Part shown: piece after piece, positions 54,136-64,000 of the stretch
How the letters are laid out: each line of letters opens with the position of its first letter
How positions within the stretch are numbered: position 1 is the first letter of the stretch
Assembly: GCF_988243305.1 (NCBI RefSeq)
Contig: NZ_OZ547136.1
DNA length: 64,000 nt
Reading direction: 5' to 3' (one strand)
The notes under the pieces: generated by a model
What the model was told of the DNA's origin: nothing
What the model saw: the letters and a program-made list of their open reading frames with translations, nothing else
The model's database searches: none
Program-made: the position numbers and the translations under genes

Positions 54136-54420
54136 CTAAACGTGGGGATGATAGGCGAACAGCGCAGGCGCGCCGCCGGTATGAATAAACAGAATCGGCC
54201 CTTCATCTTTGAAGCGTTTCTGACTGATACCGTCAATCAGCCCCGCCATCGCTTTTCCGGTATACACAGGATCAAGCAGAATGCCTTCCAGCCGCGCCAG
54301 CAATTTCACTGCTTCCATGCCTTCGTCGTTCGGCACGCCGTAGCCAGGTGCAAAATAGTCATCCCAGAGTAAAATTTCCGCTGATGCGGTCAGCTCCAGT
54401 TCTTTCGCAATCGCCTGTTG
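54136..54420 (-). pseudogene. dcyD: dcyD (D-cysteine desulfhydrase) 3' fragment, truncated by prophage insertion
   Basis: Encodes the C-terminal ~94 residues of DcyD ([13 protein letters not shown]...FAYHPHV) as I recall it; upstream in-frame sequence is unrelated. Confidence 0.8.
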
Positions 54421-54540
54421 TATATAGCGCGGCGATTTTTTTGATACCGATTTGCATTTCATTTGATACCGCTGAAAAACGCCGATACGCAACTTATTTG
54501 ATACTAAATCGGCGCTTTTCTTTTGAGTTTTAGAATGAGT
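54421..54540. repeat. Prophage terminal region with reiterated TTTGATAC / CGGCG motifs
   Basis: TTTGATAC at 54441, 54462, 54498; CGGCGATTTT / CGCCGATAC / CGGCGCTTTTC repeats; TG dinucleotide at junction (54419-54420). Confidence 0.35.
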
Positions 54541-54550
54541 TTTTAAGCGT

Positions 54551-55288
54551 TCATTCACTCTCTTTCAAACCAGTTTTAACTGTTTGTGGTTTTGGGTAAG
54601 GCTGGACTTTGAATAGCTTTGTGTTAAGGCGTTTTCTGGCTCTCTTGTCCAGAAACCGGATGTAACGAAACTGACGGAATTTATGAACACTGGCTCTGTC
54701 GATATTAGCCCGCAGATGTTCACCTCGCTGTCCTCCTCGTTTGATTGCATTCTTGCAAATCTCGTGATACCACTCGCCATCAAGTTCATAGAATGTTGTT
54801 TCATGACTGCCTACATAATCAAAATTGCTTGCCTGGTACACGACACCAAGACAGCCACAACGCTCATCTGCAAACGACTGAACCCACTGCACCTGCGGAT
54901 AAAGTTGTCTGATTAGTTTGAGCGCGTAACTGATTGCCCTTGATTCGGAGTTTCTCGGCATACAGTCATGCAGCCATAACCGGTTAAGCTCCATATATTC
55001 GCGGTTCTGCGTGCCAGTTACGACGCGTGCACCATTGTTTGGATTAAGGGCATAACCCCATTGCATTACGCCAACCAGCTCCCGTTCTGAAAATATGCCC
55101 AGATGAAGGTAGGAATTATTTACGAAACGATGGCTGTAATGTTTATTGACGACGACCAGCCGGGCCAGCCAGCAACTTATTGTCTCAACCCGTAACTCAC
55201 GGGAGCCATAACCGACGATATTGTCGTTATAGTGAATAAGTTCAGGCGTGCTGATGATACGGGATGTAACTTGCTTTCTGTTCCCCAC
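54551..55288 (-). CDS. mom: Mom-like DNA modification protein
   Basis: Follows and overlaps a Com-like gene in another frame; start proposed at GTG 55288 with AAGGAA SD; long ORF extends to 55483. Confidence 0.5.
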
Positions 55289-55442
55289 GACAGGATTTCC
55301 TTGTGTATGTGGGGTGCTCTGTGGCGCTCTGAGATGTGATTTGATTGAGGGTTTTACAGCGCGGACATTTAACTTCCAGATAACTGAAGCTGGCTCGTGC
55401 CAGTAGCTTGTTACAATGTCGGCACCGTATGTTTCGATACAT
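55242..55442 (-). CDS. com: Com-like zinc-finger translational activator
   Basis: [14 protein letters not shown]...EVKCPRCK zinc-ribbon resembling Mu Com as I recall it; AGGAGG SD upstream. Confidence 0.6.
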
Positions 55443-55487
55443 GGCCGCATAACCTCCTGCTTTGTTGTTGATATCTTTATCACTCAA

Positions 55488-61414: not shown

Positions 61415-61974
61415 TAAATAGTCTCCTCTTCATGGCTGTTTGCATAAACGTAAATAAACGTCTGCCATGCAGGCTTATAACGGTTCAGAATACATTCCAG
61501 CGCACCGCCTTCATAAATACGCAGCGGCGTGAGAATATCATCCAGCACATTCATATTCCGGTAGCCGGTTTCACTGTTAATCGTGACAATACTGACCCAC
61601 TGCGAATCCGGTGAGGGCTGAATGTCAATCTGATAACCAAACTCCGCCGCAAACCGGATATAAAATTCACGGTTCAGCGAGGGCTTCATCCGGTATTTAT
61701 TTCCGGCATAACGCTGTCGCTCCGTGAGGGTGGCTCCGGCCATATCACACTCGGGAAGCCCGAGATAACGCTCCCAGTCTTCCAGCAGCAGGCGCGACGT
61801 GTCAGGGAAACGCTCGGCAAGCAGCTGTTTACCCGTCCAGGATACACGCGCTGTCGAATGACTGAGGCCCAGACATAATGATGCCAGTACGGATGACGGA
61901 CGCTTGTCCCATGCCAGCCCGTCAGGCAGTAACTGCAACAGGGCGCGCTGATGCGGGGTCAGGGTTACAGCCAT
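61414..61974 (-). CDS. Tail/baseplate protein (Mu gp48-like, tail protein I-like)
   Basis: 186 aa between J-like and fiber genes. Confidence 0.55.
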
Positions 61975-63047
61975 GTGATTTCTCCTACCGTCAGCAGCTC
62001 ACTGTCTCCCGCCTGAACTGACGTCAGCGGACTGCGCACTTCAAAATCCTCCAGATTTTTCACCCCTGCCACCGCCCGCCAGAAAGACGACGGCAGAACC
62101 AGACCGCCGGGCCGGGATTCGTTATACAACAGGTCGGTCAGCGCCTGTTTTACGGCCGCCTGATTCTCCGGTGTTTTCGGGATGATCCTGATGCTGAAGG
62201 GCACCGGCTTATTGGTCAGTTTAAACACGGTCACCGTCGGCCCCAGAGGCTGTCCGACAGGCTGGCCGGTCGCCGGATCATCATGACTGCGGATATAATC
62301 CGCCACCCGCTGAACATCACCGTCACCGGGGAAAATATCCGGGTTATTATCCTGAACAAACGTTACCCCCACGCTGCCCGCCTGCGGCCATTCCGGGCGG
62401 CACCATGCCCGCGTCACGCCCGGCACTTCACGCGCCCAGCGTTCAAAATCATACTGCGTGCCGCCGGACGGTGGATTCTGCACCCGGAAAACCAGACGGG
62501 AAAGCAGCTCCGGCACGGTTTCCACATCCGCACCACCGGTGATCCCCGTTCCGGTCACCGTGGCCGTCTGGTTGATCCCCGCCTGCGGTGTGATAAATGT
62601 CAGTTTTGTCCCTGCCGGGGCATTCCCCGCACGACCGGCACTTTCGGCTTCCACACTGACATTCAGCGTACCGGCCTTACCGGTCAGGGAGGTGGTGATA
62701 CGGTAAACCACGCCATCACTTCGCTGGAGAAGCACACCTTCCTTGATCCCCGCATCCGTGGTCAGCATCAGCTGAACCGGCCCGTCCCCCCGAGAGGCAG
62801 GCTTACGCATGACGCCCCAGAATGCACAGTGTTTCAGCAGTTCGGCTTCATCGGCTTCGGTCGGGATGATCTGACGCGCAATCCAGGCCAGATGCTCATG
62901 CTCCTGAGCAGATAACCCTGCCTGAGCGTAAGCAATGGCATTCAGGGTGGTTTCATTCACACCCGGCTGCGAGCCGGGCAGGCGCTGGCTGATATCCTGC
63001 TGTGTCTGCGTGATTAACTGTGCCAGCGGTAAAGGCTGATAAGGCAT
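61965..63047 (-). CDS. Baseplate J-like protein (Mu gp47-like)
   Basis: 360 aa; position in baseplate cluster. Confidence 0.65.
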   Translation of the reverse strand: MPYQPLPLAQLITQTQQDISQRLPGSQPGVNETTLNAIAYAQAGLSAQEHEHLAWIARQIIPTEADEAELLKHCAFWGVMRKPASRGDGPVQLMLTTDAGIKEGVLLQRSDGVVYRITTSLTGKAGTLNVSVEAESAGRAGNAPAGTKLTFITPQAGINQTATVTGTGITGGADVETVPELLSRLVFRVQNPPSGGTQYDFERWAREVPGVTRAWCRPEWPQAGSVGVTFVQDNNPDIFPGDGDVQRVADYIRSHDDPATGQPVGQPLGPTVTVFKLTNKPVPFSIRIIPKTPENQAAVKQALTDLLYNESRPGGLVLPSSFWRAVAGVKNLEDFEVRSPLTSVQAGDSELLTVGEITWL

Positions 63048-63484
63048 TACTCCCCCTTAAGATCAGCATAAAAAATCATGGGCCTCACTGAACCATCAGG
63101 CAGGGTTATGCGCACCGAAAGCGCCAGCCGCGCGTGTCCCACACGTTCTGCATGACAGACCACGGATGACGCCACGCCATCCTGACTGAGCCAGCCCAGC
63201 GCCTCATCCGCGTAAGCACGGGCACGGCTTATCACCGAGGCCAGCGTTTTTTCCCGGCTGAGAAGCCACAGACGGGAGCCAATGGGGCGCGGGCGAAAAC
63301 TGTCTCCCCACCATCCCCGGCGGTCGCGCGTACCGTCAGGGATTTCATCCGATGCCAGCGCCCGGCGGTCAGTAAACAGCGAAATCAGAACGGCCGTCAG
63401 CAGACTGTCATCCGTCAGCAGGTCGGCACCGTTCAGTTGCAGCGAACCGCATCCCTGATCCCACACAATTGCAATATCAGCCAT
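63047..63484 (-). CDS. Baseplate protein (Mu gp46-like)
   Basis: Internal Met MADIAIVWDQ of longer ORF; overlaps neighbouring genes by a few nt. Confidence 0.5.
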   Translation of the reverse strand: MADIAIVWDQGCGSLQLNGADLLTDDSLLTAVLISLFTDRRALASDEIPDGTRDRRGWWGDSFRPRPIGSRLWLLSREKTLASVISRARAYADEALGWLSQDGVASSVVCHAERVGHARLALSVRITLPDGSVRPMIFYADLKGE

Positions 63485-63986
63485 TCTCCGGCACTCCTGT
63501 CTTACTGCCTTCGCCGTTATCATGATGCACATGGCCGGAATACCGTATCCCTGCAATAACGGCATCCGACATTGTGAACAGTCCCTGAGATTTCCCCGTA
63601 CCCTCAAGCGCGAAATTACCCTTAACATGCAGGTTCTTATCCACCGTCACATTGCCCGTAAAGGTGGCTTCCGGCGTATCCACCCGCATCCCCTCGTCGG
63701 CGTAAATCTCCAGCATTTTGCATGTCACAATAATGCGGCCATCCTTTGTTAACCGTATCCGGTGCCCCTCATGGTGATACACCCCCGTATCTCCGGCTGT
63801 GAGTCCGGTCGGGCGGCTGCGCCGGTCTTCCACCACAAGCACCACAGTCTGATCCCGCTGTCCGCCCAGACAGGCAAAAAAGGTTTCCGCACCCGGCAGG
63901 GGAACGCTGATCTGCCCGTACTGCTGGGGACGCTCCACATCATCAAAGGTTTCGCCGTCCATGCCGGTGAGCTGCACATTCTGCAT
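63477..63986 (-). CDS. Baseplate spike/hub protein (gpV-like, Mu gp45-like)
   Basis: 169 aa; first gene of the baseplate block in this window. Confidence 0.55.
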   Translation of the reverse strand: MQNVQLTGMDGETFDDVERPQQYGQISVPLPGAETFFACLGGQRDQTVVLVVEDRRSRPTGLTAGDTGVYHHEGHRIRLTKDGRIIVTCKMLEIYADEGMRVDTPEATFTGNVTVDKNLHVKGNFALEGTGKSQGLFTMSDAVIAGIRYSGHVHHDNGEGSKTGVPENG

Positions 63987-64000
63987 TTTCAGTTCGTCAT

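Follow-up and report, generated by a model that had tools for sequence, protein, structure and literature searches.

A new insertion of a Sp18-type Mu-like prophage in the dcyD gene of Escherichia coli

The window analysed here is a 64,000-nucleotide stretch of contig NZ_OZ547136.1 (RefSeq assembly GCF_988243305.1), in which the D-cysteine desulfhydrase gene dcyD is interrupted upstream of the cystine importer genes tcyL-tcyN by phage DNA. The element is a new insertion of a known, active prophage lineage, that of Sp18 from Escherichia coli O157:H7 Sakai, and dcyD is a new insertion site for this lineage. Three features mark the junction:

54136-54422, minus strand: 3' fragment of dcyD (last 94 codons and stop), directly upstream of tcyL-tcyN; ungapped match to K-12
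54419-54422, unstranded: right-junction copy of the duplicated 4-bp target, TGTA (plus strand) or TACA (dcyD sense)
54423-54505, plus strand: phage right end (attR), with the terminus 5'-TATAGCGCGG and then three inward-facing repeats TTTGATACY

The dcyD junction and the two ends of the prophage

Open reading frames (ORFs) and sequence give the minus-strand order sdiA, tcyN, tcyL and truncated dcyD. Ungapped comparison with K-12 revealed one mismatch across 54100-54422 and a loss of homology from 54423. The dcyD fragment is identical to the corresponding part of E. coli BEC1-S17-ESBL-09, whose dcyD is intact. Phage sequence common to independent insertions starts at 54423 with TATAGCGCGGCG (10 copies read directly), and the phage-side matches of most megablast hits begin at the same base. 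Since K-12 homology ends at 54422 and independent phage copies start at 54423, the host/phage boundary is 54422/54423. A preliminary description of this DNA had placed the switch at about 54420/54421 and had taken a TG dinucleotide at the junction as an argument for transposition. Alignment to an intact dcyD, which it had proposed for placing the junction to the base, shifts the boundary two bases to the right, and the TG (54419-54420) is part of host dcyD, as in K-12, the phage terminus lying elsewhere. Its observation that only the last ~94 codons of dcyD precede tcyL-tcyN agrees with the 94 codons and stop found against K-12.

A megablast search with the junction region detected the dcyD junction in 0/5,426 complete E. 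coli genomes, where the phage side adjoins many different genes. On the minus strand, a 140-amino acid (aa) ORF (54136-54558) begins in the phage end and crosses the junction into the dcyD remnant. Public assemblies list it among their gene calls, by which the insertion can be traced to the read sets ERR15422816 and ERR15423954. Two Logan assemblies contain this junction ORF, on contigs that agree with the window at every base over 5,968 and 11,867 nt (0 mismatches).

Exact-pattern scans of genome and metagenome contig collections with the predicted left junction and the right junction gave no match. The far end was sought by means of predicted DcyD N-terminal fusion proteins, in which the duplication length and the left-end variant were varied. 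The sole fusion protein found combines a 4-bp duplication with the Sp18-type left end TGTAACC; those for 4 bp with TATAACC, for 5 bp and for 6 bp were absent from the collection. The matching fusion lies on a 75.6-kb contig of ERR15423954 (L015), the same sample as one of the identical junctions. The contig has the order fliC-fliA-fliZ-tcyJ-dcyD(1-234)+HVTR, then TGTAACCAGGTGAATCATTTGATACC..., a 194-aa repressor and a 696-aa transposase, and continues with a 310-aa MuB-like protein (Pfam Phage-MuB_C), kil, gam and gemA. The transposase is located as follows:

L015 11968-14058, outside the window: 696-aa transposase, MuA-family, near the left end

Both genes that the preliminary description had expected at the other end, for a DDE transposase and a MuB-like ATPase, are thus present in the matching assembly. 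The 310-aa protein is 48% identical to Mu B. The transposase shows 22% identity to MuA, and a phmmer search against solved structures found only the MuA N-terminal domain; its sequence contains a candidate DDE triad, D309/D374/E415, in the motifs GDGHG, SDNGSGE and IIERLNRT.

The left junction of the dcyD insertion reads ..AACCTACA/TGTAACC and the right junction, as the reverse complement of the window, ..GCGCTATA/TACAACAGG, with the slash at the boundary. TACA is present at both junctions, a 4-bp duplication. Flank overlap is exactly 4 bp in eight other complete insertions as well (TACG, CGCC, AACA, TAAA, CGTG, TTAG, CGCA and TGTG). The 4-bp duplication is thus found in 9/9 insertions, two of which were verified against empty sites; for the dgcE insertion this was the unoccupied K-12 locus. 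As a control, a true Mu prophage in E. coli W was analysed by the same comparison of ends and overlapping flanks, which returned TG...CA ends and the 5-bp duplication GCCGC. A reading in which the tip T/A is counted as host to give 5 bp was rejected: it would need AxxxT flanks, and identical 4-mers on both sides are arithmetically incompatible with it.

The right tip is TATAGCG in 10/10 copies, so that 5'-TA read inward corresponds to ...TA-3' and not ...CA-3'. The left tip is TATAACC in seven copies and TGTAACC in two (Sp18 and the dcyD insertion). With TA at the right end throughout, the termini differ from canonical 5'-TG...CA-3'. The insertions therefore have neither the 5-bp duplication nor, at their right end, the terminal CA anticipated in the preliminary description. 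Its terminal block of reiterated short motifs, in turn, can be identified as three copies of TTTGATACY at 54440, 54462 and 54497, all on the plus strand and putatively repeats of a transposase site. One other copy occurs in the 64-kb window, for a chance expectation of 0.93. The left end of the dcyD insertion also has three copies, the first 17 nt from the tip, the same offset as on the right. The repeats at both ends, in inverted orientation, are candidate transposase-binding sites.

Alignment of the right arm with a prophage of E. coli HH35 showed 99.96% identity over 9,578 bases, with 4 differences. The HH35 prophage is complete (38.6 kb) and has the order repressor, ner-like gene, 695-aa "Mu transposase C-terminal domain" protein, AAA ATPase, gam, mor, lysis, head/tail, invertase, esterase, com and mom. 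Its transposase matches Pfam Mu-transpos_C (5e-17) and HTH_Tnp_Mu_1 (3e-8) and is 94% identical to the 696-aa transposase of the dcyD insertion. Other E. coli genomes harbour the same phage at about 20 unrelated positions or more. It interrupts dgcE, ydcF, a P2 capsid gene, a sgrR-family gene, sorM, a rhs gene, an elf fimbrial usher gene, flgL, xdhA, citF, bglJ, recX and others; the sorM copy is Sp18 of O157 Sakai. Some genomes have several copies, and JE86-ST05 has the phage at two sites. Sp18 was described as intact and packaged without circularising (PMC2669165), and Sp18-like phages were found at variable loci, as transposition predicts (PMC7430833, PMC10132054).

Two further observations concern the relatives. 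Most copies of the lineage contain an 80-nt 'tRNA-OTHER' (RefSeq annotation) between head-morphogenesis genes (L003 23226-23305; also L006 and L008-L011). In strain 23CRST047, the IS66-family element ISEc43 interrupts the same prophage within the DNA circularisation gene (L001 31851-34267).

Genes of the right arm and the invertible fibre segment

The right arm encodes the following features from its tip inward:

54551-55288, minus strand: mom, adenine-modifying anti-restriction enzyme (PHROG 1384, 3e-83; Mu Mom structure 8bv8, E 2e-123)
55242-55442, minus strand: com, translational activator of mom (PHROG 6417 and 13819, about 1e-13; RefSeq: Com family in identical DNA)
55699-58831: cargo block between gin and com
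55699-55992, plus strand: orphan ORF on the strand opposite to its neighbours, at a variable position of the cargo (97 aa, low G+C of 0.39)
56160-56414, minus strand: DUF826 small cargo gene (PHROG match; Pfam DUF826 in Logan gene calls)
56450-56632, minus strand: DUF1378 small cargo gene (PHROG match; Pfam DUF1378 in Logan gene calls)
56777-58831, minus strand: NanS-p-type 9-O-acetyl-sialic acid esterase, 684 aa, cargo (NanS 3pt5, E 2e-117; NanS-p C-domain 6yp6, E 7e-98)
58917-59489, minus strand: Gin-type serine DNA invertase (PHROG 125, 2e-94; Mu Gin structures 3uj3/4m6f, E about 2e-88)
59557-60897, unstranded: invertible tail-fibre segment, ~1.3 kb (inverted repeats with gix-like sites)
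59554-59928, plus strand: alternative fibre C-terminus, inside the invertible segment
59980-60501, plus strand: fibre assembly gene, inside the invertible segment
60533-61414, minus strand: tail fibre gene, Mu S equivalent (PHROG 1833, 7e-141)
61414-61974, minus strand: gp48-like wedge, baseplate, Mu order
61965-63047, minus strand: gp47/J, baseplate, Mu order
63047-63484, minus strand: gp46, baseplate, Mu order
63477 onwards, minus strand: gp45/V, baseplate, Mu order, cut by the window end

This is the Mu right-end order that the preliminary description had reported, with mom, com, cargo, a Gin-like invertase, an invertible fibre cassette and baseplate genes all present. The end of com overlaps the start of mom. 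The baseplate set (61414-64000, minus strand) is supported by PHROG 203, by TIGR01644 phage_P2_V (2e-47) and by RefSeq names in 99.96%-identical DNA. Rfam and PADLOC searches returned nothing in the region, and no terminator-like site was found between mom and the junction.

The NanS-p-type esterase, with the Pfam domains SASA and DUF6645, is the largest cargo gene and is followed by the DUF1378 and then the DUF826 gene; part of the esterase gene matches other E. coli phages at the nucleotide level. The two small genes correspond to PHROG 311 and 494. The orphan ORF at 55699-55992 had no match in PHROGs, NCBIfam, PADLOC or Pfam. In Sp18 and FORC_069, other genes occupy this position between com and DUF826, which makes the ORF a candidate moron.

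Inverted repeats at 59560-59708 and 60744-60892 flank the invertible segment, which takes in the C-terminal third of the tail fibre gene; one repeat arm lies within this gene. The segment contains a single fibre-assembly gene. In the assembled orientation this gene and the alternative fibre C-terminus point away from the fibre gene, so that the fibre would be expressed without a downstream chaperone. All inspected relatives that keep the invertase have the segment in the same orientation; those in strains M3 and CI5 (L010, L011) are without the invertase gene.

Mode of insertion and effect on the host locus

Positions 54423-64000 are, with high confidence, the right 9.6 kb of a Sp18-type Mu-like transposable prophage of roughly 38-39 kb, as judged from the size of complete relatives, which lies in an E. 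coli chromosome, in dcyD at codon 234/235. The preliminary description had read the region as the right end of a Mu-like transposable prophage that entered dcyD by transposition and not through an integrase; the transposase and MuB of the relatives, the many loci and the far end of the insertion bear this out. As the lineage is known and active, the dcyD insertion itself is ordinary.

The window ends within baseplate genes, and some relatives are degraded by an IS66 insertion, internal deletions or frameshifts. Both points would suit a dead right-arm remnant, left by deletion or rearrangement and devoid of a functional transposition module. We consider such a remnant unlikely: in the matching sample the left end, repressor, full-length transposase and MuB are joined to the 5' part of dcyD with a clean 4-bp duplication, exactly as in a simple unrearranged insertion, and the right arm differs from a complete prophage at only 4 of 9,578 bases. 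Much less probable still is that the junction is an assembly chimera, even though repeated prophage sequences commonly cause misjoins and none of the complete genomes contains the junction. An identical junction occurs in two independent read-set assemblies, and its reciprocal counterpart was recovered too, with the same 4 bp duplicated; with both junctions found in public read-set assemblies, a chimera was rejected.

Most temperate coliphages integrate site-specifically, and the element does encode a serine recombinase, as an integrase-mediated entry into dcyD at an att site would predict. This recombinase, however, is a Gin-type invertase adjoining its own invertible segment, and the annotations of the complete copies, including that of HH35, list neither a tyrosine nor a large serine integrase. 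The phage has entered unrelated genes whose 4-bp flanks differ, the dcyD site is used in none of the 5,426 complete genomes, and there is no combination of a shared locus with a common att core >10 bp at both junctions. Integration by an integrase was accordingly rejected as extremely improbable. The preliminary description had named an integrase with an att core repeated at both junctions as the observation that would speak against transposition; the complete copies, without integrase and with different 4-bp flanks, give no sign of it.

The mechanism proposed for the Sp18-type prophage is drawn from its anatomy and by analogy with Mu biochemistry. The MuA-family DDE transposase (696 aa), encoded at the far left, would bind the three TTTGATACY sites at each end and would nick the 3' tips, ...CA-3' on the left and ...TA-3' on the right. 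Together with the MuB-like AAA+ target-capture protein, it would join these tips to target phosphates 4 bp apart, and host repair would leave the 4-bp duplication TACA. The left-end repressor would keep the prophage silent and so maintain lysogeny. The right arm carries the late functions, baseplate and a tail fibre with a C-terminus switched by the Gin-type invertase, along with the com/mom anti-restriction module and the NanS-p sialate O-acetylesterase as cargo.

Several points weigh against this account. The window stops at 64000, and the left end was read from the matching sample, assembled from short reads, rather than from the window's own record. Mu biochemistry can be transferred by analogy only, because the transposase is 22% identical to its Mu counterpart and structures match only the MuA N-terminal domain. 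Both the 4-bp stagger and the cutting at a TA tip are deduced from insertion scars. At the host locus, read-through from phage promoters into tcyLN is possible, given the lack of a terminator-like site between mom and the junction.

The insertion truncates DcyD to 234/328 residues followed by four foreign ones (HVTR). With 94/328 residues removed, DcyD activity is presumably lost. The tcyL-tcyN genes would be cut off from the dcyD promoter. In K-12, dcyD and tcyL are spaced by 14 nt, which suggests co-transcription and hence lower tcyLN expression; a polar effect of this kind probably reduces expression of the cystine importer. The preliminary description had stated that dcyD is inactivated and tcyLN separated from its upstream context: the truncation to 234 residues is directly seen, and the loss of activity and the polar effect appear likely. 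For the host genome, the insertion would mean a D-cysteine desulfhydrase knocked out and a sialate esterase and an anti-restriction enzyme gained.

The insertion scars themselves are solid, with 9/9 insertions, two empty-site checks and the Mu control. As natural insertions show, the duplications made by Sp18-type phages are 4 bp long and the phages have a TA tip; prophage-finding rules built on "TG...CA plus 5 or 6 bp" would misplace the borders of such prophages. In a published survey, TG-CA ends and 5- or 6-bp duplications were given for all Mu-like and B3-like phages described by then, and TA-TA ends were reported as new in Leptospira (PMC8705779). Our literature search, which did not extend to the main reviews of the field, revealed no report of a 4-bp duplication or a TA tip for Sp18-type or other enterobacterial Mu-like phages. 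The two traits thus form a modest and apparently undocumented peculiarity of the lineage. Whether they make the Sp18-type lineage, widespread in E. coli, a naturally occurring and unnoticed form of Mu-type transposition, in which a divergent MuA-family transposase makes staggered target cuts 4 bp apart and tolerates TA instead of the near-universal CA, at the right tip in all cases and at the left tip in many, is a question to which we lean slightly towards no; its truly unreported status and the chemistry as deduced are less certain than the scars. If this were the case, the lineage could readily be compared with Mu, in one and the same host, to learn what determines stagger length and terminal-dinucleotide specificity in DDE transpososomes. 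In any event it provides a natural contrast to Mu for studies of the transposase mechanism.

Comparison with known transposable phages

The dcyD prophage has the features by which transposable phages are recognised: a MuA-family transposase, a MuB-like ATPase, many insertion sites, a short duplication and end repeats. Among isolated phages, the closest transposases are those of Yersinia vB_YpM_5/6 (79% identity), followed by Klebsiella Kp4866-3 and Yersinia Tongde (56-57%) and by Haemophilus SuMu and Mannheimia 3927AP2 (44-45%). All of these phages belong to other hosts and show no nucleotide-level similarity to the dcyD phage. The Leptospira TA-TA transposable prophages (PMC8705779) are similar in that TA replaces CA/TG at the tip. 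They have, however, a B3/Tn552-type transposase and a 6-bp duplication, whereas the dcyD lineage has a MuA-family transposase, a 4-bp duplication and a left tip of TG or TA.

With Mu and its relatives (genus Muvirus: Mu, D108, SfMu), the prophage shares overall layout and lifestyle. Mom and Gin align to Mu structures and MuB is 48% identical; three transposase sites per end, com-mom at the right tip and a Gin-inverted fibre segment are further common traits. In contrast, the transposases are 22% identical, and the end-site core is TTTGATACY, compared with the CGAAA-type sites of Mu. The right tip of the dcyD phage is TA and not CA, its duplication is 4 bp and not 5 bp, a cargo block lies between gin and com, and the 1.3-kb invertible segment has just one gene for fibre assembly. 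A megablast search of 9.7 kb against 50,697 phage records revealed no nucleotide match to the Mu group (Mu, D108, SfMu). The phage therefore lacks both the 5-bp duplication and the genome-wide nucleotide similarity to Mu/D108/SfMu that characterise Muvirus. It is not close to Mu itself and is part of the already described Sp18 lineage.

The closest known systems are Sp18 and its relatives Phi804-3 and the CC119 Shiga toxin-producing E. coli Mu-like phages, a lineage described as packaged and transposing (PMC2669165, PMC7430833, PMC10132054). Differences from Sp18 are mosaic: the right arm aligns over only ~60% of its length, at roughly 76-95% identity, the repressor region is unlike that of Sp18, and the gene between com and DUF826 differs. 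The dcyD prophage is itself a mosaic, with a HH35-like right 9.58 kb, a left end whose first 173 bp are 100% identical to Sp18, and a repressor region (L015 10705-11550) with no match to either Sp18 or HH35. Between the two types, the left tip (TG or TA) and the first 60 transposase residues vary together. Beyond these differences, Sp18 has the same gene order (repressor, ner, transposase, B, heads, tails, invertible fibre, invertase, esterase cargo, com, mom), an identical right terminus (TATAGCGCGGCG) and likewise a 4-bp duplication, and the transposase shares about 96-98% of its residues with copies of the lineage. By its termini, gene order and high nucleotide identity, the prophage in dcyD is a member of the Sp18-type lineage.

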